Position numbers and translations under genes: made by a program | The notes under the pieces: model-generated | The model's input: only the letters and a program-made list of their open reading frames with translations | Told to the model about the DNA's origin: nothing | Database searches by the model: none | Shown: piece after piece, positions 3,532-64,000 of the stretch | How the letters are laid out: each line of letters begins with the position of its first letter | Numbering within the stretch: the stretch's first letter is position 1 | Assembly: GCA_905331295.1 (NCBI GenBank) | Contig: CAJNYD010000049.1 | Span: 1 to 64,000, forward strand | Length of the DNA stretch: 64,000 nucleotides | Direction: 5' to 3' | Origin: Rotaria socialis | Taxonomy: Eukaryota

Positions 3532-5740
3532 TTAGTGACAACAATATCGTACACAGTTAAGAAGAAAAAACCCAAAATCATGAAATACAAGACAGTTGAT
3601 TCTCGTATCTTTCATCCATTCGAACGAGCGATATATCCAAGTACGTCGGTGACATCGACTACAGGTAAAATCTTTCCTTTTATTCCATTTTTGCTGAATC
3701 CGAACATCGGCTGTCTGCAAGCCTCCAAGTGCATCAACTTTATTATACCACAATGTCGAATTTTCGAAGTCGTGCATGCATTCGTAGATTTGTCCCATCA
3801 TCGAATAAATGTTAATGAATTCCATTTGTTCGGTTGGAATAGCCTTCTGTGCAATTTCCAATGCTTTCTCGGTATGACCTAGTGCCCTTTGCAACTCTCG
3901 ATGTCGAAGTTCAAGCAACAGCGTTGCTAAACTTAGATTATAAAATATCAGATCCGGATGTATTTCTGGTAATGAATGATTGGCCACATTTAAAGCTCTC
4001 TCACAATACTCGAGCGATGTTCTATAGTACTTTCTACGCCGAAAAAAAGCAGCCATATTTCCATAGCACGTTGCAATTCTCGGATGATTTTCACCGAAAT
4101 TTTTCCTATAGATTGTCAAAGCCGTATTGTATGAGTCAAGAGCTTGTCTTCGCTTATGTTGCATGCTATATAGATTTCCTCGAACCAGATGAATATTAGC
4201 CTGAAGGGGATGATCCATATATCCGTGACTTTCGCACTGTTCCAGTGCTCGATCATACCATACAGCACTTTCTTCATATCGACCTGTATGTAATGCTGCA
4301 TTGCCAATATTCTGACAGTATTGTGCGCGGTTTGGATCATCTGTAGAAGTTTCATAATAGATTCGGCGAAAAAATCGATCTGCAGTGTGGAATTTATTCA
4401 TGTTGAATAATACGACGCCAAATGAGTTCAAACTTGCTTCTTTATCTTTTCCCGTTAGTTCACCGCCGTATTCATTGCGTAGTGTCTCAAAAAGCGGTTT
4501 CAATTTATTCTCTTCATTGCTGCAAAGCTCCATTTTTACTGTTGAGAAAGAATCTCCATTAATTACATCCGTAATATGAAACATACTTCCAGCCATAAAG
4601 AGTACTTCTTCTTCTTGTGGAAATTGACTGAATCTTGATATATTAGCAAAGGGTTGTACACCGCCAAGAACCTTCGAATCAGCGTTTATGTCAAATAAAA
4701 CGCTCACTTCGTCATCATTCTTATTGTTGTTTATGAGAATCTCGGCAACGCTTAGTTGAAGACTAGTTGATAGAAAAGAATTCATTGAGATATACTGATC
4801 TTTTGCTTTGGACAACTACTTCCATTCTTCTCTTGAAAGACGTTGTCCGCGATAAACATGCACTGGTAATTGTTCTTGATGAAGCATGAGCTGGTTTTTC
4901 ATATCTTGTAAAATAAACCGATAGAGAAATAGCAGATCTATATTTTGAGTGCGGAGAGCTTTATTAAGTTGACGATAGACAAATGCATCTTTGGTATACC
5001 ACTCAAAGACTTTTTCTGCATTGTATTCTAGATGAAACTTCGTCACTTTTTCTAATTCTTTTGCATTAGTGGCAAAAAGTTCGGTACATCGAGCAATCAA
5101 TTCATCCTTATCATTGAGCTTTTGGTCCATTCGAAGGAGAATATCGAGAAGTAATTGAGTGAAAAGGAATCGTCCGTTGATTTCGTTTGAAGAAAGTTCT
5201 GATGTCTTATTTCCTTCGAAAATATTGATAGAAAAGAATTCTTTAGTGTTGCGTAGGAAACGAGCTTCAAATAAACGAATGCGATTGGCTACTTGGTCTA
5301 GATTGGTATGTTTAACCTACGAAAACGATCCATATAATTATATTTTCGATCATCAAAATATAGCTTACTTTCACATATGCAGGAGATATGTGATTTTCAT
5401 CATCGGTACTCATTGCTACGAGGTGGACAACGAAGATTACTTTGATGGGACAGAGGCAATGTGTAACATTAATGATCTCTTCTGTATCTTGCCCTTCAGC
5501 AATAAGTATTACTTCAGCACTCGTGGGCAATTTGTAAAGATAATCACCACACTCCAAGAAATCTTCGAAAAAACGCATATTGTATCCGTCTAAATTCAGA
5601 ATTTGTTCGGAATACTGTGGATCTTGGAGTAAAGTTAAATGTGGCCTCTCATTGAGCCATACAATATCGAAATGCTCGATGGTAGCATGCTCTTCAATTT
5701 CCTCCTGAGCAACAGGCACATGATATTCCGAGCCTTTCAT
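3532..5740 (-). pseudogene. ADP-ribosyltransferase (R-S-E clade) + TPR repeat gene with in-frame nonsense codon
   Basis: Exons about 5740-5369 and 5316-3532 (52-bp GT-AG intron); motifs WYTKDAFVYRQLNKALR, VYRGQ, FLSTS, QEEEVLF, then TPRs; single TAG at 4816-4818 between the R and STS motifs, with the frame continuing. Confidence 0.85.
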
Positions 5741-14815: not shown

Positions 14816-17800
14816 ATGAGCGAATCGAAATTATATTTTATCAGTATCATTTTATATTTATATATTTTATTGACTGTTGCCGATAATAATGAAAGTAATA
14901 ATAATGTTGCCGCTGCTAAACCGTATGCGCGAGGTAATGTATTCATAAAAATATCGTTCGATTGATTAACATCTAATCTGTGATCGTCTATCAAAAAACG
15001 ATTATTTTCGAAAAGTTAATTATTATTCTTTAAATCGATTAGAATAATTTTTCAGTGTTTCCGTTCTGTTGAAGAAGTTAAATTTCGATAATTCGCTGTT
15101 AGATATTGACAACGCACAGTAATCTATTATATCTCACAAAAAAACGTTTTTTTTTTCCCACAAGCACCCGAGTTAAAAGAGCTTAGTGCCGAGTAGATTA
15201 TTGAAAGAATGACACTCCAGTATGAATTCTACTATTATTCTCAATCGAAAGATAACCTTGACAGAGAAGACTACAACATCTTTAGAAAATTTCCCATACA
15301 AATCAATTACATATATTTCTATTGTAGTATGTGGCGACATTCATGTAACAGTATTCGAATTAAAAACTGGTTTTAAGAACAATCAGTTGCTGTTATGTGA
15401 AATAAGTCTTGGTTCTGTTACATATGCTCCAATGAATTCCGTAAAGAATGCAAGCACAGCAACGTCAATATCTTTTCCACATCTTCGTGAAATCTATGGT
15501 TATGTGTTACTAGGTTATTCATCCGTGGATTCATTTTCATCCATGTTTCCGAATTTATCCGTTATACATGGACGAGATTTACATCAGGGTTATTCATTAA
15601 TTGTCACGAACAATTTTCTATTAAATGAATTAGGTTTAAAGTCATTAATGAGCATACGCCGAGGAAATGTAATTATAGCTCGAAATGCTCAATTGTGTTA
15701 TGGAAAATCTTTACGTTGGAATGATTTATTAGAAACAAAAAAGAATCATATTATATTACGACAAAATCGCGATAATTGTGCTTTCTGTCCGACATGTCCA
15801 TCAGCATGTTGGTCGCCAACACAATGTCAAAAAATATGTTCAGCAAATTGTCAAGGAAATTGCGTATCAGCAAAAGTCTGTTGTCACGAACAATGTGTTG
15901 GAGGATGTTATTATCATAATCGAACTATGTCATCGACTTTAATTTGTAATGCTTGCAGAAACATGAGAATCTATTCTACGGGGATATGCGTACAAAAATG
16001 TCCAACAAATATGTTGAAAGTAAAGTTTACTTTTGATGTTTTGTTAACTTTCATAGTTTGTGCTTTTTCCTTCATATTCTTAAGAAATTTTTTTTTTATT
16101 TCAAAGACTCGCAATTCGTTATGTGTAACTCCTGCAGAATGTAAGTCGTTGGTTTCGGGCACTGCTTTCATTTTAGAAGGGACAAATGAATGCGTTTTAT
16201 CTTGTCCGTCTGGTTTTGTTCGAGAGCCAGATTCACGTTGTGTTCGTTGCATATCATCGGCAGATAATAGTTATTGCAATGGTACATGTCGCGATAAACA
16301 TATTCAATCAATAGAAGACTTTAAATTATTAAAATATTGTTCACGCGTATATACATTAAGTATTTATAATATACAAACAGTCGAATCAAAAGGAACTAGT
16401 TTCCAAGAAGCATTTGCTGCATTTGAATCACTAGAGCAAATTGATCATGAATTTACAATACGTAATGTTAAAATATTTTCAACATTAAAAATCTTTTCTC
16501 GACTTCGCCGTATTGGCACAGCATCAAATTCTTCGATGACAATTGAGGAAAACGAATTTCTAACTGAACTATGGCCATCCACACAACCGCGGCCAACTAT
16601 TCAAGGGAATTTAAATATTGTTCGTAATGCTCGTTTATGTATAGAACATATTACAGATTTTATTAATTATACAACTAAACATGAACGAGGTTTTAATGAT
16701 TATTGTTATTGATATTCTATTGAACAAACTCAATTTTTATTTAGATCTTCAACCAACACCCGACACATTGAATCAATATGCTAATGGATATTTAACATCG
16801 TGCGAATCAAATTTTTTAGAAATAACAATTAGTAATATAAGTTCATTAACAGCACGAGTTAATATTGCTATAGCAAAAGATTTATTTCTTCACTCAAGTG
16901 GTAAAGCCAAAAATTTACGTCGGTCATTTTTCTCAGTTTTTTACAAACCAACACGAACGAAAAATGAAACATATTTCGATGCAACACATTCATTGAATTG
17001 GTTAAGAAAGGTTGAAATGGTCAATTATAATCGTCCACCAAATAGTAAATATGCATTCGAATTTATCTTCATTCAAGATTAACGAGTCCAATAGATAGAT
17101 AATTCACTCACACCCTTGTTCGTATTAGCGCTTGAATTCATATAATCCGCTTTTTGATTTAACTGGGGAAACTTGATAGAAGATCATTTCCAAAGGAAAT
17201 TGAAACTACGATTAAATCTACAAGGTGCAGAGTGTATAAAGGATATTCGAGAAAATACATAAACGGATAGGGATCACAATAGTTTTCTACCTGTCGTTCC
17301 CGAGCGAAACACTAAACCGGATGAACTTCTTGAATTTTTATTGATATAATATTGTCTAGAGGAAGAATAGAGAGAGAGAGAGTATACTAGACAATGTGCG
17401 CGAAATTATTAATCTTCTTTTAGGTGAATCGTTTAAAATGAGCACACAATTAGAGTCACTTGTTGGCTATCAATGGTATGCAGTTTATGTATCAATAACA
17501 TCAAATCTTGATACAATCGGTTCATTTTCTTCTATTACTTATTTTCAAACATTACAACGTCAACCGGAACCAGTGCTTAATTTGCATGGTAAATCATTAT
17601 CTCGATCAACAATTGAGTTAGTATGGCAAACGCCATCGAAACCTAATGGTCCAACAACAAATTATCTCGTCTATTATGCACCCATAGAAGATCGTTTACC
17701 AGTCGATAATTCAAAATTATTGTGTTTAATGAAAGGTAAATTGAAAGTATAAAAGAATTTATTTCGCTAAATAAACGATACATAATTTGTTTTCTTAGAT

Positions 17801-19843
17801 CGTTGGCGATCGGAAGTAAATGTTCAAGTTAATAATTTAAATCTTACGCAGTCAGTACAATGTTCACAATCTAAAACTGAAGTAAATAATGTGATCACAA
17901 ATAATTATGATTATGATGATGAAGAAAGTACAAATATTGACCACGTTGCAACGGATTTATCTATAATTGAATATAAACTTATTAATTCTGTCACTCGACG
18001 AAACGATCCCCTAACGCTTAGTAAAGAAGTTAAAGCTGACATCATCAATAATTTAGATATTTTTTTTGAAAATAACACTACTGATTTTAATGATAACTAT
18101 CAGATAGACGTTCAAGAGTCATCCGTTGTTGAACACAGACCATATATTGATCAATACAATCGATCTACATCCGACACAAGAATTATTATTGACGCTTTAA
18201 AAGAAGCACAACTGTATCTATTTCAAGTATATGCATGTCATAATATATCGAAACAAGCTTTATCGAATTCTTGTAGTCTTAATGGAATTATATTAGCGGT
18301 TAGAACAAAACCCGGTGATGGTATGTTTTAATGAACCGTAGAGAAGCTATTTTTCGCTCTAGTGAACCCTGAAAGCTGAAAAACGGTTTTGGTTTTTCTA
18401 GAGATCCTATATTTTGTAGCTCGTGCAGATGCTGATCAAAATTGAATTTTCGGAGTCGAAACAATTCGAATTCACAGGGCTTCAGTAGATTATCTTCATA
18501 TCCTTCGCAAAGGATATTTCGGTTGGACTTAACGTGATAATTCTCTTGTGGTTGTTCGCTGTTACCGATTAGAATTCTGTATTAAAAGTTATTCTTTTCT
18601 AATGCATCCTGTTTTCAATTCATTTTTTTTCTAGCTTCGCGTGATTTAGTACGGAATGTTCAACTTACCTCTTCAGCAGATGATTCTGATCGTTTAACAG
18701 CTGGTGAAAGACTATTTCTGTATCGAATATCATGGTTGGAACCACTAGACCCAAATGGACTTGTTTATTATTATATGATATATATTGCACAAAATAGTAA
18801 TAATGAATCAGTACAAGAATATTGTGTCGGTTATGATAAATATTCAATAAGTGTAATACTTTTACCGAGTACAACGTATCGTTTAAGAATCATAACATAT
18901 ACAATAGCTAGATTGAATAACGAATATGACGATAGAGAACGGATCAATGGCGAACCCAGTCCATCTAATTCAACAAATTTTATTTTTGAATTGACTTTTA
19001 CAACAAAAGGTTTATCAAGTAAGATTGAAAGAAAGAGAAATCTGTAGTATAAGATTATAAACGTGTAGATTTAGTTAAATGAAATAAATAGACGATGTTT
19101 TATATTCGATTCTCATAATGAGGAAAAGAATTCTATAAATGCTATATGAAAATAAACCAAATTGAGACTATAAACCATCACGTACGGCTGTGGGTATTTC
19201 TCATCTCTCAACTCATGCCTAACTCTTGGATTCGTCTAGGGCCTTTTCAGCGTCTTCCATGGCCAAATCCAAACTAGGATAGGGTATCTAGTAACTGCAA
19301 CAGATCGTCATTCATTCAATAGCATAACATATAATAGATCTCCTTGATAGCGCCACGAAACGACTATTTCAATACAGTGCTTATCGATATCGCAGCTAAA
19401 TGTACGCAAACGAACTCCCCTAAAACAGAAAACGCTTTGTTTATCATTGATCAACAATTTGCTTTAAAAAATGGATGTATTGTTGCTTCTATTGAAGTAA
19501 CAATCTATGACTTTTCTGGGTCAGTTTCTCAGTTTGACCGAAAGAATATGTAAGATAAAAAGACTTTATTTTCGTTCAATTTTTATTAAAAAAATTCTAT
19601 TCATCATACCTATAAATTTTAGGTAATCAATTATTTCGACAAAATCGTTTACCAATATTTATATTAATAATTTTGTTAACTATAATTTTACTAATCGTTA
19701 TAGTTATTGCACTAATTTATTATTATAAATCTCGTCGAAGGACTAAAACATCAAGACCAGCATTTCGTTGCTTGTTAACGACTGTATACGACGACGTAAA
19801 CGACCGTACGCGATCGTACTCATTGCAACATACGATGGTATAA
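14816..19843 (+). CDS. Insulin/IGF-receptor-like ectodomain protein with TM helix and short tail, no kinase domain
   Basis: Predicted exons 14816-14933 (signal peptide), 15328-16019, 16107-16689, 16745-17044, 17424-17735, 17799-18320, 18635-19018, 19623-19843; L domain (FPHLREIYGYVL, FPNLSVIHG), furin-like Cys-rich region (CCHEQCVGGC), second L domain, FnIII (WQTPSKPNG, EPLDPNGLVYYY), TM; AATAAA about 19920. Confidence 0.85.
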
Positions 19844-20154: not shown

Positions 20155-23100
20155 CTAGCATGCACCATTGATCAAATTGTTAGTGTGTATTTCCAGTTCT
20201 CGATTCATGTTGTGAACTTTGTTGCAACGGTGCTCGATATAATTAACATGTAGTTTAAGTTCTCGATACACCGTCTCAGCTTGGCGACAGTGTTCAGCAA
20301 AATTATTCGTCAACGTTTCTAACTCTCGACTCTTCTTTTCCATCTTGTTCCAGCGGTGCTGAAACTCGTTAACATCCACTTGAATCTCACGGGTCTTGGT
20401 GTCCATATGGTTGCATCGTTGCTCGAAATCGCTGATATGCGCACCAAGCTGTGTCCTCATGGTTTCTGTCTGATGACAGCATTTCTCAACGTTGTGATTC
20501 TGTGTTTCAAGTTCTCGATACTTCTTCTCAACTTTGTTACAACTCAATTGTAGATCGTTAATCTGCGTTTCAAGCTCTTGATTCTTCGATTCCACTTGGC
20601 TGAGATTTTGCTCCAGATCACTGATGTGAGTAACATGCTGTCCATTTATCGTTTCAACTTGAATAAAGCGTGTCTCAATTTTTTCATTTTGTATTTCTAA
20701 CTCTCGATTTTTTGTGACTATATGGTTACAGGATTGCTCCAGTTCGTTAATATGAGCGTCCAGCTGCCGTTCCGTGGTTTCAGCTTGATGACACCGTTGC
20801 TCAAAATTGTTACACTGCGTTTCGAGCGTTCGATTCTTTTTCTCCACTTTGCTACAGCGTTGCTGAAGGCTACTAACATCCGTTTCAATCTCTCGATTCT
20901 TCATATCCGTTTGGTTGTAGCGTTGTTGAACATCGTTAATCTGCGCTGCTAGCTGTTGATTTATGGTCTCTACTTGATGACAACGTTGCTCAAAATCGTT
21001 ATTTTGCGTTTCGAGCATTCGTGTCTTCGTGTCCAGATGACTGCAACGTTGTTCAAAATCGTTGATGTGTACTCCCAATTGCCTATTCGTTGTCTCCACT
21101 TGATGGCAGCGTTGATCGAAGTTGTTGTTGAGAACTTCTAATTCTCGACTCTTGCTGTCCACTTTGTTGAAGCATTCCCGAAGATCTCCGATGTGTATCT
21201 CAAGCTCTCGATCCTTCGTGTTCATTTGGTTGCACCTTTCCTCAAATTCGTTAATATCTACTCGAAGCTCTCTATTCATGATTTCCACCTGATGACAACG
21301 TTGCTCCAGGCCGTTATATTGTGTTTCTAACTCTCGATTCTTCTTGTCTACTTTATCCCAGCGTTGCTCAAAGTCATTAAAGTGTACTCTGAACTCTTGA
21401 CAAGTGGTCTGAATTAGATGGGAATGTCGCTCAAAGTTTTTATTCTGTCCTTGAAGGTCTTGATTCATGGTTTCTACTAGATGACAGCGTTGCTCGAATT
21501 TCCCATTTAGCACTTCTAGTTCTAAATATTTCTCCTCGATTTTCTTGCAGCATTGTTGAAGATCATTAATCTGTACACCAAGCTGTTGATTCACGGTATC
21601 CACCTCATGATGACGTTGCTCAAAGCTACGATTCTGATTTTCAAGCTCTTGATTTTTCATGTTAGCGTGTTTCTGACTTAGCTCAATGTCGTTAACACGC
21701 ACACCAAACTGTCGATTCATTGTCTCCAGTTCATGACAACGTTGTTCTAAGTTCTTATTCTGTGTTTCAAGCTTTTGATTTATGATCTCCACTAGATGAC
21801 AACGTTGCTCAAAGTTCTTATTCTTTGCTTCTAGTTCTCGATTGTTTTTGTCCATTTCATTGGAATGTTGCTGTAGATCGCTAATCTGTGTTTCAAACTG
21901 TCGATTCTTGATACCAGCATGGCTGTGAGTTTGCTCAAGATCATTGACTCGTGCTACAAGCTGGCGATTGGTATTCTCCATTTGATGACATCGTTGGTCA
22001 AGACTTTGATTCTGTGTTTCCAACTTTTGATTCGTGATTTCGACTAGGTGACATCGTTGGTCAAAGTTACTATTCTTCGTTTCAATTTCTCGATTAGTCG
22101 TAGTCATTTGCTGAGATCGTTGTTGAAGATTGTTGATCTCCATTTCAAGTTCTTTATTTTTTATATGGAGTTCATTGTAGTGCTGCTGAAAATCATTCAT
22201 CTGCAGTGCAAACTGTCGATTCGTAGTTTCAATTTGATGAAAACGTTGTTCAAAGTTTTGACTTTGCACTTCTAGTTCGCGATTCCCATTATCCACTTTG
22301 TTGCAGTTTTGATGAACCTCGTTTATCTGTGTTTCCAGGTCACGGTTTTTTGTGTCAGTTTGGTTACAACGTTGTTCTAAACTGGTAATCTGTGTTCCGA
22401 ATTGTTGATGGATGATCTCCGTCTGGCGACAGCGCTTGTCAAATTCATGGTTCTGCGTTTCCAACTGCCGATTGGCGTTGTCCACTTTATGATAGCCCTG
22501 TTGAAGCTCATTAATGTGCACTTCCAGCTGTCGATTATTGGTCTCTAATTGATGGCAACGTTGTTCAAATTTGTTATTCTGCGTTTCGAGTTCTCGATTT
22601 TTATTGTCCACTAGGTTGCATCGTTGCAAAAGATGATTAACTTGTATTTCAAGCTCACGAGTCTTGGTCATCGTTCGATGACAAAATTGCTCAAAATTAT
22701 TTTTCTGTCCTTCTAGATCTTGATTGGTTTTGTCCATTTTGTTGTACCGTTGAAGGAGGTCGTTGAGTTGCATTTCAAGTTCTCGACTCTTTGTGTCTAT
22801 TTGAGTGTTATGTTGCTCCAAATTGTTATTCTGATTTTTAAGATCTCGAGTTATGATATCGAGTTGGTTGCAGCGTTGATCAAAGTCATTAACCTGTGTT
22901 TCGAGTTTTTCATTCGCTGCGTTGGCATCATGACCATGTTGCTGAAGGTTCTGAAGCTGTATTTCTACTTCTGTATACTTCTTGTCCAGATAGTTACTGT
23001 GTTTTTCAAACTCGTTCAAGAGTTCAATGTCATGGTGTTTGAGACTTTTCAGCTGCTGCGCAAGGTGCTGAACGTCTTTTGTCAGATGTTTATAGTTTTT

Positions 23101-23535
23101 CTCGAGAATAATGTATTGACCAAGAGTTACTCTTTCGTGTTCGTAGGGAAAACTCTCTGCTCTCCTAGTATATATATATTTTGATGATGTCGGTCTGTGC
23201 ACGAATTCTTGCATTTCATATGGTGATCCTATGCGTGGATAAAGGTATTCGGGCAATGCGTCTGAATAACTGGTTTGTTTTTTCGTTTTTTCTTGAATGG
23301 AGTACTCTACTGGGTTTCGATCATACTTATTTCTAGAATAATGTCCATCGATTCTCGGTTCATCAGCGTGCTTTGGTACATCACGGCAGAGGGAACAAGA
23401 GCGATGGTGTCTTGATTTGGCTTCAGTAGAGTAAGGATCAAATGAGTAATCAAGTGATGAAGATCGGTGATGATGAATGGAAGTATCATTACATATTTTA
23501 CACATAAAATGCGTGCTGGTCGGCTGCTTATCCAT
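20155..23535 (-). CDS. Long coiled-coil protein built of about 40 degenerate 21-aa repeats
   Basis: 1126-aa uninterrupted ORF; repeat type FEQRCHQVETxNRQLxxxINd. Confidence 0.85.
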   Translation of the reverse strand: MDKQPTSTHFMCKICNDTSIHHHRSSSLDYSFDPYSTEAKSRHHRSCSLCRDVPKHADEPRIDGHYSRNKYDRNPVEYSIQEKTKKQTSYSDALPEYLYPRIGSPYEMQEFVHRPTSSKYIYTRRAESFPYEHERVTLGQYIILEKNYKHLTKDVQHLAQQLKSLKHHDIELLNEFEKHSNYLDKKYTEVEIQLQNLQQHGHDANAANEKLETQVNDFDQRCNQLDIITRDLKNQNNNLEQHNTQIDTKSRELEMQLNDLLQRYNKMDKTNQDLEGQKNNFEQFCHRTMTKTRELEIQVNHLLQRCNLVDNKNRELETQNNKFEQRCHQLETNNRQLEVHINELQQGYHKVDNANRQLETQNHEFDKRCRQTEIIHQQFGTQITSLEQRCNQTDTKNRDLETQINEVHQNCNKVDNGNRELEVQSQNFEQRFHQIETTNRQFALQMNDFQQHYNELHIKNKELEMEINNLQQRSQQMTTTNREIETKNSNFDQRCHLVEITNQKLETQNQSLDQRCHQMENTNRQLVARVNDLEQTHSHAGIKNRQFETQISDLQQHSNEMDKNNRELEAKNKNFEQRCHLVEIINQKLETQNKNLEQRCHELETMNRQFGVRVNDIELSQKHANMKNQELENQNRSFEQRHHEVDTVNQQLGVQINDLQQCCKKIEEKYLELEVLNGKFEQRCHLVETMNQDLQGQNKNFERHSHLIQTTCQEFRVHFNDFEQRWDKVDKKNRELETQYNGLEQRCHQVEIMNRELRVDINEFEERCNQMNTKDRELEIHIGDLRECFNKVDSKSRELEVLNNNFDQRCHQVETTNRQLGVHINDFEQRCSHLDTKTRMLETQNNDFEQRCHQVETINQQLAAQINDVQQRYNQTDMKNREIETDVSSLQQRCSKVEKKNRTLETQCNNFEQRCHQAETTERQLDAHINELEQSCNHIVTKNRELEIQNEKIETRFIQVETINGQHVTHISDLEQNLSQVESKNQELETQINDLQLSCNKVEKKYRELETQNHNVEKCCHQTETMRTQLGAHISDFEQRCNHMDTKTREIQVDVNEFQHRWNKMEKKSRELETLTNNFAEHCRQAETVYRELKLHVNYIEHRCNKVHNMNRELEIHTNNLINGAC

Positions 23536-46778: not shown

Positions 46779-48930
46779 TTACTGATGAGTTTGTCTGTGT
46801 AAGGTACGTGGATCGAGGGAAGCGATGCACTTGAAGGGACGAAATAGTCTTTCAAATAGTTCCGGCAGTGACTCAGACAAATTCATATTTTCGCGAGCGT
46901 TTTCAGCACTTTGGATAATATTTTTGATATGCAAAAGATGAGGATTTTCCACAGGCCACATATGAAGGCAAATGCTAAGCGCTTTTTTATATAAAGGTAG
47001 TGCTGTCCATAAATCGGCTTTCTCTTCAATGCTGCCTTTATTTACTAATACAATAGCGATCTCTATATGTTCTGATGGTAGCGATTTCTTGTAGACTTCA
47101 AGCGCGCGCTTATAATAGTCCAATGCCGTGTCATATTCGCCAAGACGTTGATGAACTTCTGCCATATTATTCCAGGATGTACCAAAGCGGAAATGAGTCC
47201 GTGGCAAATGTTTTAATCGAATCTCCCGAGCTTTTTTATGATAATCAAGTGCATCAGGATATATCTTCTGTTCTTTACAGACGACACCGATGTTAGTATA
47301 AGTCATGGCGCTCGCCAGATCATCTTCACCAAGCGCTTGTTGAAAGATAGCTAACGCCTCGTGGTACAATTGTAGTGCCTGGTCAAAGTTACACCTATTG
47401 TAATGCACACGCGCGATAGCGGTGAGTGTATCAGCAATACTCGGATCTGATGATTTTAATGTTTGCCTTCGAATGTTTAACGATTTATTAAGAAGATCGA
47501 CGGCACGTTCATCGTCACCGTTTTCTGTGGCTACTAAACCAAGCAAGTAATAACAGTAAGGCTTCCACACATGATCATCAGACGGCAGTAATTCCAGACA
47601 ACGATTATAATAAGTTTTTGAATGTTCGAATTTACCCATATTGTGCAGTGAATTACCAAATTCGAGAAGATCTAATTCGCATCGACTAGACTCTGTTAAC
47701 AAATAATCAAAGATTGGTTCCAAAATCTCATTATGATTACTGAATAATTTTAGTTCAATCAACCATACTCCGTATTTATCAATCTGAATGCTTTCAATCC
47801 GAAAAATTGATCCCGACATAAATAAAATTTCTCCTTCGTCAGAAAAGTTGCTCAGGAGTGATATATCAGCAAATGGTTTAATACCGCCAATTGATGGATC
47901 GGCATATATTTTAAAGAGTACTTTCTCTAAACCCTCCGTACCACCACCAATGAAGAATTCAGCTATATCAGGATCAAGAGTCGTTGAGAACAATGAATTT
48001 ATTCCAATCAACTTTCCGACTGATTGCTGCAATCTTTCCACTTCATATTTCGACAGAGATTGACCTCGATAAACATATCCTGGAGATGACCATTGATTTT
48101 CTTTGAGTTGCTGTGCAATATCACGAAGAAAAAAACGAAAAACAAAAAGTACATCGATGTTTTGTACACGAAGTGCTTTGTTCAGAATTCGATAAACAAA
48201 CGAGTTTCTTGTATACCACCACACTGATTTATCACTTGAATATTCGTTTTGAAATTCGTGCACAAGTTGCAATTGACTGTCTTGATCTTTGATATCTTTT
48301 TGATTGTGACAAAAGTCAATAAATTCTTTGATTGCCGCTGAAGTCGATTTCATTTTTTGAAGAGTCTCAATCAATAGTTGTGAATGAATGAAATGGCCAT
48401 CTAATTCGGCAGTTGACTTCTCTTGATCATCATCAGTGCCGAATATGTCAAATGAGAACAGATCATCGTCTTCACGACCTGGTCGAATCCTATAACTTGA
48501 TGTCATGAACGTAGCAAGTTGATTCCACTGAGAATATATGCCTCGAAACTAAGAAAGAAGATTCTCTAAATCATTAAAGTTGCTGTATGTGTATAATTAC
48601 TTTTCTAAACTGTCGAAACCATGATTCATTTGGCTGTATCTCAGCGCTACAAATATATATGGCTAACACTTGTCGAAGTTGATCAATTCGAGGTATAATT
48701 TGTTGGCCCAATGGAACATCGTCAATAAAGACAATGCAATCATCATCCGAAAGGGATCGGATGAATTGCTCACATTCAATAATATTTTCAAATAACTTTA
48801 TATGATTGATTGATGACGGAATTTGTTTTAAAGTATCAAGAATGTGTTGATAGTTACTGTGAGAGTCAAATAGTGAAATCTGCCAATGTGTCTTAACATT
48901 ATTGTTATTCGCTGTTGAAGCTGACTGCAT
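46779..48930 (-). CDS. ADP-ribosyltransferase (R-S-E clade) + TPR repeat protein, intact
   Basis: Exons 48930-48601 and 48548-46779 (52-bp intron, in frame); WWYTRNSFVYRILNKALR, VYRGQ, NSLFSTT, DEGEILF; about 6 TPRs of about 42 aa. Confidence 0.9.
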
Positions 48931-54590: not shown

Positions 54591-56604
54591 ATGGCCGATG
54601 ATCAAATAATAAATCGCAATAGACGAGATATGTCTACGAACGATGAATCCAATAGTATTGAGTAAATAGCTCATTTTAACATAAGATATTTAGAATGATT
54701 AGATTTTGTTTAGGAAATCTGGCAAAACTAAAAATACAAAGTCATCTGATGGCCTCACCGATCTGGTTCAAATAGTTTCAGTCAGTGGTTTAGGCATTGC
54801 GTTCGGTTTTTTAATGAACAAAGCTAATGTATATCTTGCTCCGGTAATTCGAGATCAAATGTTATTCCAGCACTTTACCATGATTAAAATGTTTCTTGGT
54901 GCTGTTGGAGCATCAATGTTAAGCTCATGCATTGTTATTGTTGTTAGTGAATCAACTTATCGAACTGTTTGTAATTCATTTATTCATCGTAATAATCGTA
55001 TTCATGGTAAACGCTAAAAAAAGATATAGTTATTTAAAGGTTACATCCTAAGACAAAATGCTGAGATTAAATTCAGAAACATAAGCTGCGATCAAACTAA
55101 GATGAGGAAAACGGAACATTATTTTCCATAAGCTCATTCGAAAAGTAAACAAATCGACACATACTTTCTTAAACCATCTTTCGAATACTTAAAAGCATAG
55201 ATGTTTTTTCAGAGAAGACTGAGCATTTTTGGCCAGCGGATGTGAAACTTTATATTATTCAATTAAAATAACGATGCAGTCCAGATACGCTCGACCTGTT
55301 TATAACATACCTTGAAAAATAGAATGAATGCAATTTTAATTACACAATGAGACGTATTTTATTTTATAGAGAATTAGAAGAGCTCTTCCGATGCAAAGTT
55401 TTAGTTGCAAACATCGAATTGGCTTCTTACTAAGAAAAGAAGTTATGTTGATATCATATCAAATTGCACCTTTGAGAGAAAAAGCTTTACCAGGGAAAAC
55501 GTGATAGTTTTGTACATTTAAGTATGGTAAAGTATCTCAAAGTAGGGGAAGTGTGAAGTATCACGTTTTCTTCTTGGAAATTCATCCGGTTGTACAGAAT
55601 TTTCTTTTGAAAAGATAACGAGTTTAAATATTAATTATTTGTTTTAGGTTCTCATCTTTTGATGGGTGGAGCTCTTATTGGAGTTGGTATGGTTCTTGCC
55701 GGTAGCTGTCCAGGAACGGTATTTGTTCAAATGTAAGTGATTTATTTTCATGGATTTATTTTTGTAGTTGAAATTCTTTCTTGTACTTAGGGGCTCGGGT
55801 CTGCAAAATTCTTTTCTAACATGCCTTGGTGCTATCTGTGGAGTTTTGTTTTATTATGGATTTCTTTCTGCGCGTTTAACAAAAGATGAAGTACCAAAGT
55901 CATCAATAGTTCTGCAACAACTTCCAGAATTAATAGGTGTCAAACGTAGTTACCTGAATTTAATATTTGGTTCAATATTTATTGGTACTGCATTTACTCT
56001 TGAACATTTTATTCCCTATAAAAATGATTTCATAACACCAAAGGGACTCCCTAGTATATTAGGTTGGTCACCAGTACTATGCGGTATTGGTATTGGCTCA
56101 TTACAATTATTTTTTATGATGTTATTTAAAAAATCATTAGGAATATCAACTGGATTTACTGTATTAGTTGCACAATTGTGTCGTGTGAAATCCCTTAAAA
56201 AATTAATACCATCCTTAGAGCCATTCACTTATGGAGTACAAAATAGTTTAGCATTATTATTTGCATTTGGAGCTATTGGAGGAAGTTTTGTTTCAACAGT
56301 TTCAGCAAATCAATTTCCTTTAAATGAACAATATGGGGCAGGCGTTTTGAGTAGTTTCTTTGGAGGATTTTTATTAACACTTGGTGCACGCTGTGCTGGT
56401 GGTTGTACAAGTGGGCAGGGAATTTCTGGTAATTTTTTCTTTTTCTAATATTTCTATTGTTCTTATTTTTGTGTATCATTCAAAGGTGTCACACATCTTT
56501 TGGTTGGCTCTCTTATTGCAACTGCAGGAATGTTTGGTGGTGGAATGCTTTTTGCTGCAGGCTACGGATTGATAACAAAAGACTGGCTATTTCGTGCTTT
56601 ATAA
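54591..56604 (+). CDS. YeeE/YedE-family sulfur-compound (thiosulfate) transporter
   Basis: Five GT-AG exons; GIAFGFLMNKA..IRDQMLF..MIKMFLGA, GVGMVLAGSCPGT, GGFLLTLGARCAGGCTSGQGISG. Confidence 0.88.
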
Positions 56605-58460: not shown

Positions 58461-59740
58461 CATTATACAAAAATTGTTACATCAACACTTATTTATCGAT
58501 AATAATATATTAAAATATTTTCTGTTCGAATTTCTTTCTATATCAACGATTTATTTTCAATAGAATCAGCAAGATTGTCGGAGGCTCAACAGGAAACACG
58601 TACACACCCATGCTATTTTCGAGATATGCGTATCTCGAGCAGTTTTGGTTCTCATGTAGAGTACTTCTTAATCTGGCTCATAAACTCTTCTCTTTGTGAT
58701 TACAAGGAACGGGTGACCACACTCTAAAACAAATTGTTTTATTACCGAACCTGTGCTCAGGATATATAAGAAGGGTGTGCGTGTGTACGTGTGGAAGATG
58801 AAGAGAACACCAACCTGCATTCCCCACACCCATTTATTTGTAAGCATAACTCAGTACAATATAAAAACTAAGACCCCATAGGTGAATAGTGTGCCAGTGA
58901 ACATGAGTGTATGAATACAGTGGTATACATGTATACCCTTTTTAGATCGCCATTGAATTTTCATAAACCGAGTCGAACAGTTATGTTTAATATTTCGAAA
59001 ATCGAGTTCTCGTATATGATCGTCACTGATGGTTAAGTATGTTGACGCTTTCAGCGCATTACACATCAGTATGAGCATCAATAACCTTCAGTTGGTTGCG
59101 ACAATGAATGTCGTCTTCGGACACGAATAAAGAACTCTTCCCATATCTGAAATTTCATGAAGAACTACCAATAAGATAATTTCACAGCAATGAGCCAACC
59201 AGGCTATCTTCGATCGCTTGTTTCTTGAAAACGAAAACAATTTGCACGATGTGCAATCAATGCGTAGGCGGAATGGAGTGGTTCATGTCTTCTTATACTT
59301 CATCTAGACTGTTTGGCACATTTGTACACGTGTCCAAAGATATTCAGCATATACAATTAATTATTTTTTTGAAAACAGAGTCCATGATGACATGAAATGT
59401 TATCGCCAGTATTGACGTATTCATACGACTAATTGTGACGATTGTCTGACAGAAGATGTACGAGTGAAGACGGGATAACACATTAATCCGTTCCTTCGTA
59501 TCGTACAATCACATCATATTCATAGGCAACACCCATTTATACATGCGAGATAAAGGAGAGAGAGAGACGCAAAGAAAAGGAAATAGGAGATAATTGTTTA
59601 AGAAGAATGATAAAAAGCATTATTAGAAAAAGAAAGTTTCGCTAAAACTGTTTGAAGATCTTGATTTATAAGTTTGAAAAGAATGTCCTTATTTCTGGAG
59701 CCAAAAGGTTTCTGAATGAAATAAAATTTTAGTGGTGGTT

Positions 59741-62700
59741 TTATCCAAACAAATCTCTCCTCAAGTCTTCTGCTTGCTGGGGCGATAACAAAGGTTTACA
59801 TTGATTTTTCGTCGGATAATTTGGTATCCCAGTAGCTACAATGGCATCAAGGAATTTCGCAACTCTATCTTGATAAGTACCTGGAGGTGGAACCTTTAAC
59901 ATATTACTTAGTTCCGTTTTTAGAGTATCATATATCCTCCCGTTTTTCAAGTGTTCTCTCAGTTCGGCGCGGTATTTCGTTGCCTCTGCGCTACGTCCAG
60001 TCGAAATATAGTCTTTATGATCATCACATGTCATAGGTATTACTGGCAAGTCTTCCGGGTTAATGTGCTCAAAAGGTGTACCTTTCAAAGAATTTTTTGG
60101 AGGGATGTGATTCAATTCATATTTGCGCCGTCGACCTTTGTATTTTTTGTTCAGCTTTTTATAGGTGCCCGCGTCTTCTTCGATTCCGTCAAATTGGTTC
60201 GTGTTTAAATTATTTTCTTGAATGTCTTTAGCACCTACGAGTAATAAACGGTTTGCTTCTTGAGGATGGCGAGTCTCGATCCACTTCTCTGCTTCTCGTG
60301 TTTTCATGAATTGTGTGGGATTGTTTTGTACCATCGCAGCTCTCTGATTACGAAGATCATCAATGGAGATATCGGTACCTTGATTTTGTAATATTTTTTG
60401 AATCACTGCATACCCACAATTATTGTTGATACTAGGCACATCGATGACGTCTCCGTTTTCTCCCCTAAGCTGATAATGTCCTATGCCTATTTTTCCTTCA
60501 CTGTTAGTTTCACCTTTCGTATAGACAATAATCTTCGTACCTTTTTCTATATCTTCCTGGGTAGGTTCGTATGCCGGATCATCGACTATTTTAATGGTTA
60601 TACCATTCTCAGCAGCCAGCCCCATCATATCAGCAAGATCTGCTGGCTTATCATTCTTGATGTCGTCTATATGCTTTTGTGTTGTACTGTCTAATGCTTC
60701 GTATTCATTTTTGCTGTCTGATGCTGCTTGCTGTGAGTGGTAAATAATTTCGCATTGACTATATGCAATACAATAATCTTTAGCATTATAATTTATTTGT
60801 TCAGTAAATGTTCGATATTTGCCATAATTTTTCATAAAAATTTTTTCTTCTTCTGTTAAATTTGCTTTACTTTTAAGTTCATCATATTTTTCTTGATCCT
60901 TATTGTGACTATCTGAGTTTTGATTTTTATCAACCAAATAATTATGTTGAATTCGGCTTGAAATACTATTTGCGACACTGCTAACTGCTAACGTTGACCA
61001 TGGCTGTATCAACTGCGATTCAATTATTTGTATTAATTGTTCAGTTATTTTATCTGCAATAGATTTCATAATTATACTAAACGAATCATATTCAACTTTC
61101 ATATAATTATCACAGAATAATATCATAAACTGGGCAACAGCATCTTGATCTTTTTCTTGTCGATTGAATTCATCTATTTTACGTTGCAATTTCCTGCATT
61201 CATCACTAACATCATCATGAGACGAAAGTTTTAAATTATCATTTTCGTCAATAATTTCCAAATTTTTAAGTTTATTCACTGCATTTCTTGCAATTTCTTT
61301 GTCAATCTTCAGATTCCGATGTAAGACGAGCGTGAGTGTCATTGTATTTTTATCAATTTGTGAAAGTTTCTTAACCAACTCTATGTATACGTTATCAATT
61401 AACGTTTGTAACTCGTATATACCATTTAATGTACCGATAATTCTAATTGTCATACTAATGACACTACCATAATTTTTGACATCTGCCAAAACACCTTTGA
61501 GCAAGGGTCCACCAATTGAATCCCATTGTCTACGGGCGAAATCGTGTTGTGGATTTATTGTATCGGCAACAATTTGATCTACTTTACATTGCAATATTTT
61601 TGACTTGGCTTGTAAATCCAACGCATACATTTTTCGTAACAAATATATCAAATCCGGTTTAGAAAACATCACTCGAATTTTCGATTGAACTGATTCGGAT
61701 ATTTGTGGTTTAATCAAATCAAATGAAAATTTCGATAAATACTGTACACCACTGTTGAGACCTTCTCTCACAACTGCTTCACCTGCTTTAACACCGGTAT
61801 ATTTGAATGCAAGACTTTTGAGATTTTTGCCAGTCTGAACAACTGTTTCGCCTATGGTTGCTGTATTTGTTGCAACTTGTGCTCCTGCTTGCTCAAGTGC
61901 CTCTTTACCAGCCGATTCAACTAAAGTCGTGACACCTTTTCCAGCATCTTTAAGATTGGAATAGCCCATTGAAACAGCAGAAATGATTAAGCTGACAGCC
62001 TTCTGTTTACAATAATCTCCCCAATTGAATTGTCTATTGCTAAATGCTCTATAGGCAGTGAACATATCAGCTATGCCTTCAGTGATAAGACCCATTCCTA
62101 CAGTAGAACCAAATCCAGTAGCAATAAGAACACCACCAGCAATAATTTGCAGAGATCCTAATATAGCCACAGCTATTACACTTCTCCAAGGAACAAATCG
62201 TTTCTCATTTATTTCGATCATATATTCAATACCTTTTGCTGTAAATTCATTCAGTTCAACAGTAGGCATAGAACCTTTTGTGTATAATTCCATTAGATTT
62301 TTTATTTTACTTATTTGTATATTTTCTTGAACGAGATCTGCATGAATAACAATATATTCAACTTGATGATCTTCCAAACATTGAAATTCGAGAGAGAACT
62401 CGATATTCTCTGTACGAAGATCTTTTATTATAATTTCCGATGTTGTCTTGTTTAAATTGTTAAAATGAAAATTTGCTTGTCCATTAAGACCATTAATACT
62501 GTTATAAAAATCTATGCCAACAAATGAAATATTAAATGAAATTTCTTGACAGCCAGATATAATTTTGCTGATTTGATCGGTTTGCAATGATTCAAATTTG
62601 ATATAAAAATATGAATCATCGTTTTTAAGTTCTGTTGCTCTTTTCACTAATTCATTTCGATCTACTTTTTCATACAATTTCTGTTCAGTTACACATATTT

Positions 62701-64000
62701 TTGCAGTTTCTATCCATTTATTGCGACCTATAATTGGCAACAGTATTGATTTAGTCAACACCATTTCGAGATTTATAGACGCGGCTTTGATTGAAGATAG
62801 TTTTTCCTTAATACTCTCAAAATCTAAACGATCAAAATCAATTTGAAGATTCTCAGAATCATTAGCTGCATTTTTGAAATGTGTATTCACTCCATTCACA
62901 TTTGCACCTTTAATAATGATGTTAAATCGAAGTGTATCATCCGTTTTTTCTTCAATCAATGTAATAAGTTCATTCATTTGTTGATTTTTTAATTCTTCAG
63001 TTTTGCTATCACTATGTATAATTTTCAAATCAACTTGATATGACCTTCTTACACGAAGTATATTCCACATGGTTCGTTCGCTCTTAAGTTTATCTATAGC
63101 TGATTCTTTCGTCAGATCCAGATATTCTTTATTTTGATTGAAAATTGCTTTTATTCTATCTAATTCGGCTTGTTTCAATGTAATAGATATGCCATGGTAT
63201 GATGACGGCAAGTTATCTTTGCAGTATGCATTATTTATAGTTTCCAATGCTTGGTCAATTGTAAAACTATCTTCTCTCGACGTCAAATCATTAAATATTA
63301 AATTATAACTTGCTTTCTTGTTCATTTTAATGTCTAATTTATTCTTGCTGTTTCTTTTAAGCTCATAATAAAACTCGATCTTTTCTAATACATTCCCATG
63401 AGAATGCTGTTCAATTCCAATCAAGTCAATAAGTCTTAATGATTTTTTGATTGCACCAATATTACCTTGAACACTATTTAAATATGTACCTAAAATAGTT
63501 ACTTTCGTCACAAACTGTTTATATAGTTCACTACCAGTAAATGTCGGTTGTTTTTGTTCTAAAAGTACTTGCATTGAATTTAACATTGCCATTTCATTGG
63601 ATAAAATTTTTAATGATTTCTCAAATGATTCAAGTGCTTTATTTTTATAATTCTCATCTCGAATTACAAGTGCGCACCAGGCTATACCTAAATAGGCTGC
63701 ACCAGAAACAGCTTCATCTAATTGAACAGCTTTCTCAAAATGACTCAAAGCACTTTTAGCTTTTGAAGAACTACGTATTGACCAATCATTCATAATAATA
63801 TCATTTGCAATCGCTGTATGATAATATGAATTTTTAATAATTTTCTCTTGTTCGTAATCTTTTCTCAATGTGGCAATCAATTTGTTGCATTCTTCGTTGG
63901 CATGATCTAATGGTATAGTGTCATCATCTAATTTTCGTAAAAACATCGCCCATTGTTCTTCAACAGCTGCAATTATATTTGTCTCATAAACAGTTGGCAT
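59741..64000 (-). CDS. 3' part of a giant protein: TPR-like helices, hydrophobic hairpin, permuted OTU-like domain, RHS-toxin-like C-terminal domain
   Basis: 1419-aa ORF open to the window edge (true start probably upstream); AYLGIAW..KALESFEK; WRSVIAVAILGSLQIIAGGVLIATGFG; GHY..NNCGYAVI..LR; ELNHIPPK..PVIPM..DH..STGRS..A..YR. Confidence 0.85.
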   Translation of the reverse strand: MPTVYETNIIAAVEEQWAMFLRKLDDDTIPLDHANEECNKLIATLRKDYEQEKIIKNSYYHTAIANDIIMNDWSIRSSSKAKSALSHFEKAVQLDEAVSGAAYLGIAWCALVIRDENYKNKALESFEKSLKILSNEMAMLNSMQVLLEQKQPTFTGSELYKQFVTKVTILGTYLNSVQGNIGAIKKSLRLIDLIGIEQHSHGNVLEKIEFYYELKRNSKNKLDIKMNKKASYNLIFNDLTSREDSFTIDQALETINNAYCKDNLPSSYHGISITLKQAELDRIKAIFNQNKEYLDLTKESAIDKLKSERTMWNILRVRRSYQVDLKIIHSDSKTEELKNQQMNELITLIEEKTDDTLRFNIIIKGANVNGVNTHFKNAANDSENLQIDFDRLDFESIKEKLSSIKAASINLEMVLTKSILLPIIGRNKWIETAKICVTEQKLYEKVDRNELVKRATELKNDDSYFYIKFESLQTDQISKIISGCQEISFNISFVGIDFYNSINGLNGQANFHFNNLNKTTSEIIIKDLRTENIEFSLEFQCLEDHQVEYIVIHADLVQENIQISKIKNLMELYTKGSMPTVELNEFTAKGIEYMIEINEKRFVPWRSVIAVAILGSLQIIAGGVLIATGFGSTVGMGLITEGIADMFTAYRAFSNRQFNWGDYCKQKAVSLIISAVSMGYSNLKDAGKGVTTLVESAGKEALEQAGAQVATNTATIGETVVQTGKNLKSLAFKYTGVKAGEAVVREGLNSGVQYLSKFSFDLIKPQISESVQSKIRVMFSKPDLIYLLRKMYALDLQAKSKILQCKVDQIVADTINPQHDFARRQWDSIGGPLLKGVLADVKNYGSVISMTIRIIGTLNGIYELQTLIDNVYIELVKKLSQIDKNTMTLTLVLHRNLKIDKEIARNAVNKLKNLEIIDENDNLKLSSHDDVSDECRKLQRKIDEFNRQEKDQDAVAQFMILFCDNYMKVEYDSFSIIMKSIADKITEQLIQIIESQLIQPWSTLAVSSVANSISSRIQHNYLVDKNQNSDSHNKDQEKYDELKSKANLTEEEKIFMKNYGKYRTFTEQINYNAKDYCIAYSQCEIIYHSQQAASDSKNEYEALDSTTQKHIDDIKNDKPADLADMMGLAAENGITIKIVDDPAYEPTQEDIEKGTKIIVYTKGETNSEGKIGIGHYQLRGENGDVIDVPSINNNCGYAVIQKILQNQGTDISIDDLRNQRAAMVQNNPTQFMKTREAEKWIETRHPQEANRLLLVGAKDIQENNLNTNQFDGIEEDAGTYKKLNKKYKGRRRKYELNHIPPKNSLKGTPFEHINPEDLPVIPMTCDDHKDYISTGRSAEATKYRAELREHLKNGRIYDTLKTELSNMLKVPPPGTYQDRVAKFLDAIVATGIPNYPTKNQCKPLLSPQQAEDLRRDLFG

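Follow-up and report, generated by a model that had tools for sequence, protein, structure and literature searches.

The stretch of DNA analysed here (the window) comprises 64,000 nucleotides of a Rotaria socialis contig (CAJNYD010000049.1). At its end it holds an open frame on the minus strand (59741–64000) of 1419 codons, which runs off the window and represents the 3′ part of the gene for a giant SecA-motor protein. The closest named relative of the encoded protein is from Rotaria magnacalcarata. In a relative of 4022 aa (P0002), which is 92–93% identical to the window's protein, the SecA_DEAD, SecA_PP_bind, P-loop_SecA and Helicase_C matches all lie upstream of the part matching the window, and two relatives of 4022 and 4025 aa were found to carry SecA_DEAD, cross-linking, P-loop and Helicase_C domains with intact Walker A and DEVD motifs. 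The region 58500–64000 was covered by one contig each in two of four runs (X5 and X7, both of which may themselves be the source of the window DNA), with 5–6 substitutions and no gaps, and is not an assembly artefact.

Elsewhere in the window, two ADP-ribosyltransferase-like genes with TPR repeats (3532–4815 and 46779–48506, minus strand; ART matches below cut-off), an insulin-receptor-like gene spread over several open frames that are probably exons (15222–18331, plus strand; Recep_L_domain and Furin-like), and a repetitive coiled-coil-like ORF of 1126 aa with a strong AT skew (20155–23535, minus strand) were observed. The ART-TPR genes and the fragmented insulin-receptor-like gene give the window a eukaryotic character. 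Hydrophobic open frames at 54703–56448 (plus strand) presumably resemble a YeeE/YedE-like sulphur-transport membrane protein, and a short element at 58719–58764, to which several further contigs from three runs align, is probably a small repeat.

The encoded sequence has a single strongly hydrophobic segment (aa 608–626; 62123–62179, minus strand; Kyte-Doolittle 2.44), which is predicted to insert into the membrane and opens a conserved Gly-rich region; a homologous region was present in all 41 of the 41 matches with 520 aa or more ahead of the protease domain. This domain, predicted to be a circularly permuted OTU-like cysteine protease (aa 1103–1250; 60251–60694, minus strand), lies near the end of the SecA-motor protein of about 4,000 aa. 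It contains His1175, the predicted general base (60476–60478), followed by Tyr1176 at an aromatic 'gatekeeper' position (60473–60475) and, 20 codons after the His, by Cys1195, the predicted nucleophile (60416–60418), while the near-invariant Trp1240 (60281–60283) falls within the last helix of the domain. The domain runs into the junction N1250–A1257 (N-R-L-L-L-V-G-A; 60230–60253), with a predicted self-cleavage after Ala1257, and this in turn into a C-terminal tip of 162 aa (59744–60229), all on the minus strand. The preliminary description had placed a His-before-Cys protease at this position from its motifs; the coordinates and spacing of the two residues were confirmed, and all the motifs quoted there lie in the one open frame.

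With the C-terminal 721 aa as query, 1961 candidates were scored and 32 proteins of 2366–5184 aa returned, whose named hosts are Rotaria, Adineta, Brachionus, Tetrahymena thermophila, two ostracods and Hyalella. A profile of 18 copies of the domain, run against 1.84 billion sequences, then gave 166 representatives with E no higher than 0.001 (150 of them listed, overlapping in part with the first set), and the two that were named out of ten listed matches looked up added Bradysia, a gnat, and Paramacrobiotus, a tardigrade. The family also occurs in bacteria. One of 72,556 plasmids, from Ca. Megaera polyxenophila, encodes a 5225-aa 'SecA-like domain protein' that is 49% identical in the domain, and that aligns with the rotifer protein over 3989 columns (41% identity) and with a macronuclear protein of T. 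thermophila over 4330 columns, a stretch that takes in much of the tip (79% identity, suggesting a recent transfer). On this plasmid (CP113870.1; L001:347–20815) the gene stands in tandem with that of a second SecA-like giant of 1589 aa without the protease domain. In addition, a Francisellaceae MAG holds a member as an ORF of 3568 aa. A Ferrimonas sequence (L003, 23%) was treated as a chance match. No tblastn match of P0001 was found among 50,697 phage records, and no relatives were found among viral contigs or, by exact peptide patterns, among metagenome contigs. No description of the family was found in searches of full-text literature, and it may be listed in supplements (Additional File 1 of PMC3482391, SI of PMC12501173) or in subscription papers.

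Conservation of the two putative catalytic residues is high and exceeds chance. In the first set, where 30 of 34 proteins carry the domain, the His is kept in 29/30 and the Cys in 28/30; among the 150 listed matches of the profile search, both are present in 102 of the 116 domain rows covering both columns. In every one of these 102 listed rows the His precedes the Cys, by 17–30 residues and in 65 of them by exactly 20, which is the opposite of the order in the Pfam OTU family (PF02338). It should be noted that the third catalytic residue of OTU proteases (D, N or E two residues after the His) is absent in 20 of 20 sequences, being replaced by Q, R, K, C, Y or L, and that this counts against the self-cleavage reading; although an aromatic residue follows the His in 50 of 86 listed rows with an intact dyad, the H-aromatic-D/N/E strand of the EschOTU triad was not encountered.

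Some variants of the domain were observed besides. In P0016 (Cyprideis) a duplication (residues 3379–3780) comprises the latter half of the protease domain together with the junction and the start of the tip, and in P0035 the domain is matched twice; these repeats could be an assembly effect, or a tandem repeat relevant to the origin of the permutation. A distant SecA giant, P0034, has a diverged His-first domain (residues 2404–2477; i-E 5e-5), and its junction ends in two Gly, which hints that the family may be wider.

Sequence comparison gave little guidance on the fold. None of 18 family members matched Pfam OTU, the best Pfam matches of the domain were below cut-off (DNA_Packaging_2 and Peptidase_C39, E 0.06–0.18), NCBIfam gave no match, a sequence search of the PDB returned only noise, with no match to EschOTU, and no relatives were found among BFVD folds. 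The language-model features of the Atlas provided a weak OTU lead (0.76), no sequence method linking the domain to OTU. An AlphaFold model built from 28 sequences was of good quality (mean pLDDT 81.4, pTM 0.77, core about 90 or more), while a poor single-sequence model (pLDDT 51.8) was left out of the structure search. In the model, Cys1195 starts a helix (model residues 128–139) and His1175 starts a strand. Its best VIA-align match among 48,161 chains was EschOTU (6w9s_A; rmsd 3.7 over 128 aligned residues, 20% identity), with a Z of 8.3 that barely exceeds the best Z of 7–8 usual for models lacking a clear match; model residues 30–178 are collinear with residues 194–346 of that chain. Foldseek also ranked EschOTU first, although weakly (E 0.26, probability 0.63; next match 0.08). 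All of the top 17 VIA-align rows are EschOTU or proteases/acetyltransferases of the CE-clan type, the latter at ranks 2–17 with Z 4.6–5.9 and 8–13% identity; over all the rows compared, CE-clan-type matches ranged from Z 4.3 to 6.0. The top 50 rows contain no canonical Cys-first OTU, as expected of a sequential alignment, and this is no evidence either way.

EschOTU has been shown by crystallography to be a permuted OTU with His before Cys, an order found also in the CE clan, and its termini lie near the S1 helical arm (PMC7396840). Permuted OTUs of this type are threaded His first and have their new termini beneath the sheet, whereas the papain-like fold of the CE clan has its acid on a neighbouring strand. 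The domain is therefore predicted from the model to be a His-before-Cys permuted-OTU cysteine protease. The permuted OTU/papain-like fold proposed in the preliminary description is thus borne out at a moderate score, with the same collinear best match in two structure searches; what had not been foreseen there is that precedents for it exist in EschOTU and in the EmcB family. Since EschOTU is a solved circularly permuted OTU, the permuted fold as such was already known.

The feature that sets the family apart lies immediately downstream. Following the near-invariant Trp, its members share the motif N-x-L-L-F-x-[GA]-[GA]. In the 93 rows that cover dyad and junction, out of 155 domain rows from the 150 listed matches, P5 is Leu in 78, P2 is Gly or Ala in 82 and P1 is Gly or Ala in 84. 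Exactly after this motif conservation ends: mean pairwise identity among the listed matches is 0.67 at P1 and about 0.1 from P1′ onward, and the picture is the same in 23 non-redundant full-length proteins. Among 14 chosen pairs, the 20 residues before the junction end and the 20 after it contrast sharply, with 16 versus 2 identities between the Megaera protein and P0019, 20 versus 1 between P0006 and P0007, and 16 versus 3 between P0001 and P0005. That the short eukaryotic tips (9–24 aa; P0005, P0008 and P0009) reflect an intron at the junction was rejected as an explanation of the break, because bacterial genes and the uninterrupted frame in the window show it too.

The motif resembles the C-terminus of ubiquitin, which ends in RLRGG and enters the cleft with Leu71 and Leu73 (PMC7391069); the junction corresponds to this in its Leu at P6, its hydrophobic P4 and its small P2–P1 residues. 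In the AlphaFold model the junction (model residues 182–200) has a pLDDT under 50 and the alignment is poor past the two Leu. Judging from the offset of the aligned ranges, the Trp helix would fall on the ubiquitin-binding helical arm of EschOTU, so that the junction would leave the domain where the tail of ubiquitin would enter.

The tips themselves are diverse. In the first homologue set, 25 tips fell into 12 clusters, and 59 tips of at least 80 aa from the listed matches of the profile search fell into 35 BLAST clusters, tips under 40 or 80 aa being excluded from these counts. Pfam matches in the tip region of 11 of the 35 scanned proteins were to Lipase_3 (three), T5orf172/MUG113 (four), Endonuclea_NS_2 (three) and phage lysozyme (one), and DUF7587 is also among the named tip families. 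The tip in the window matched neither Pfam nor NCBIfam; its Atlas feature scores of 0.91–0.93 to the Tox-SHH, Tox-GHH2 and AHH clusters agree with the toxin-like tip anticipated in the preliminary description, and it is predicted to be a His-Me-finger (HNH/EndoVII-like) nuclease, with motifs at 60095–60118 and 60008–60025. The Francisellaceae member (L002:353–11059) has a phage-lysozyme tip as well (E 5e-39); its body, known otherwise from eukaryote-associated settings, thus bears a cargo of antibacterial type. As in polymorphic toxins, the body is constant and the C-terminal effector domains vary, here with one break position, and the tips are likely toxic, to judge from their domain families, from which their delivery may be surmised as well. 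Neither an immunity gene nor an orphan tip cassette is evident downstream within the window; the gene that follows after 21 bp on the Megaera plasmid is the second SecA-like one and not an evident immunity gene, and L002 ends 67 bases past the stop of the Francisellaceae ORF.

Two lines of evidence couple the protease to the junction. The junction motif is kept in 78 of the 86 listed rows with an intact dyad but in a single one of the 7 whose dyad is broken (nominal Fisher p 2.5e-5), where the broken-dyad rows are few and partly related (P0024 and P0026 are sisters), decayed genes lose motifs generally, and a search profile built from 18 intact copies favours conserved matches. Four of the eight intact-dyad exceptions have Val/Ile-Gly, and others look misregistered or truncated. 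Moreover, the gatekeeper position covaries with P2. Among the matches listed, an aromatic residue after the His goes with Gly at P2 in 48 of 50 rows (Ala and Ser once each), and a non-aromatic one with Ala in 26 of 36 (Gly 4, Val 3, Ile 1, other 2); the pair ranks second of 7910 long-range column pairs by MI-APC over 82 rows. The direction of this covariation agrees with the gatekeeper mutants described in PMC7391069, according to which only Gly is accepted at P2 when an aromatic residue follows the His, while its removal admits Val. Nevertheless, the gatekeeper label needs only two changes on the tree, with 32 of the 33 non-aromatic rows forming one branch (support 94), and 8 of 194 columns, most of them beside the active site, divide the first set as the gatekeeper does. 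The covariation is strong in direction but, with just two changes of the label, close to a single event in number. A further caution is that in polymorphic toxins tip exchange points follow conserved motifs even where no protease is adjacent.

On this evidence, the predicted permuted-OTU protease of the giant SecA-motor protein likely cuts its own chain after the ubiquitin-tail-like motif, releasing the exchangeable tip. The permutation would put the C-terminus of the domain where it lies in EschOTU, at the entrance to the S1 cleft, and the next eight residues could then enter the active site where the tail of ubiquitin would; cleavage would occur in cis, after Ala1257. As the architecture suggests, the C-terminal part may be carried through a membrane by the SecA-like ATPase and the hydrophobic region and released only then, and the gene may serve conflict or defence. 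It would have entered eukaryotes from endosymbiotic bacteria, a transfer from symbionts to which the Megaera and Francisellaceae members point.

Of the two functions offered in the preliminary description, deubiquitinase or release protease, the second is favoured by the junction evidence, and the first is not our primary reading. That the domain mainly acts as a deubiquitinase or ubiquitin-like-modifier protease, on host proteins or to protect the effector, with the Gly-rich motif only a recombination linker, appears improbable. Its best structural match is indeed a proven deubiquitinase bound to ubiquitin, both known permuted OTU groups are deubiquitinases, and the His-aromatic motif strongly enriched in such enzymes (PMC7391069) is present in the window's copy as in 50 of the 86 intact rows. 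In the other 36, however, the aromatic gatekeeper is missing and the protein's own junction shifts along with it; the Trp214 that secures GlyGly in EschOTU falls here on K-P-A, according to the range offset; the last helix of the domain and the junction would themselves fill the ubiquitin site; and a RickCE-like domain of its own (E 4.7e-5, below cut-off) is present in the cargo of the Megaera protein.

Viral papain-like proteases cut themselves and then serve as deubiquitinases. A similar dual use, in which the domain cuts itself first and the cleft freed by departure of the tip acts on ubiquitin, is suggested by the likeness of the junction to ubiquitin's tail, by which the preference of the cleft would fit ubiquitin in the gatekeeper-bearing group; yet the P-side residues would stay attached after cleavage and could block the cleft, and we regard this as an unlikely course. 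Very improbable is a derivative of the CE clan (Ulp1-like), or the use of Cys1083 in the ordinary Cys-before-His order, with no permuted OTU at all: matches of the CE-clan type occupy ranks 2–17, Cys1083 is kept in 24/30 homologues and Pfam OTU is matched by none of 18 members, but EschOTU is ahead by 2.4 Z units and in identity, and Cys1083 sits in a long preceding helix (model residues 2–27), whereas Cys1195, kept in 28/30, starts a helix after [ND]-[ND] inside the range aligned with EschOTU.

Self-cleavage with release of the tip being the preferred reading, the family can be compared with known systems. EschOTU, from Escherichia albertii (PDB 6W9S), shares the permuted fold and the position of the termini, but is a deubiquitinase with an H-aromatic-N triad and without sequence similarity, and the available text of PMC7396840 does not report it as part of a SecA giant or followed by tips that are exchanged. 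In the EmcB/CoxDUB family (PMC12501173), compared here by description, the Cys helix has likewise moved behind the His strand, to which a loop joins it; its 34 proteins (33 from Legionellales, one from Bacteroides) are, however, deubiquitinase/deNEDDylase effectors, the main text mentions no eukaryotic member, SecA or rotifer, and the benefit of the permutation is called unclear there. Other permuted papain-like enzymes are listed in PMC10318531 and PMC13720258.

As for the architecture, polymorphic toxins in which OTU or Tox-PL1 peptidases are proposed as processing enzymes have a constant delivery body, an internal papain-like peptidase and variable C-terminal nuclease or lipase tips, and SecA-like domains were noted in Amoebophilus effectors (PMC3482391); the main text of that paper does not mention a permutation, and our family differs in its SecA-like motor body, in its genes residing in eukaryotic genomes and in that no immunity gene was seen. 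SecA-like ATPases are also described in giant actinobacterial toxins (PMC8195603). The eukaryotic association module of phage WO contains two homologous SecA-domain genes of an endosymbiont that are closer to invertebrate than to bacterial sequences (PMC5062602), and the Megaera plasmid likewise has two SecA-like genes, in tandem; however, no anatomy of protease and tip is described for the WO genes in the text of that paper. What is new is the setting of the permuted OTU, with a ubiquitin-tail-like motif after the domain and then many unrelated tips.

More broadly, we tentatively propose, as a possibility that goes further than the reading above, that these proteins are undescribed self-delivering giant polymorphic effectors, composed of a SecA-like motor, a membrane segment, a permuted OTU cleaving a built-in mimic of the ubiquitin tail and a swappable tip, which may on repeated occasions have passed from endosymbiotic bacteria to rotifers, ciliates, arthropods and tardigrades, where they may still be exchanging tips; the permutation could then be an adaptation enabling self-cleavage, and explain why permuted OTUs exist. 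If true, the permuted order of the OTU fold would acquire a function, and the family would be an example from nature of a protease and its own substrate evolving together. The unannotated 'SecA-like' proteins of 4,000 residues that symbionts and small eukaryotes encode would become one system with a precise cleavage site, a polymorphic effector system resident in eukaryotes with varied nuclease, lipase and lysozyme tips.
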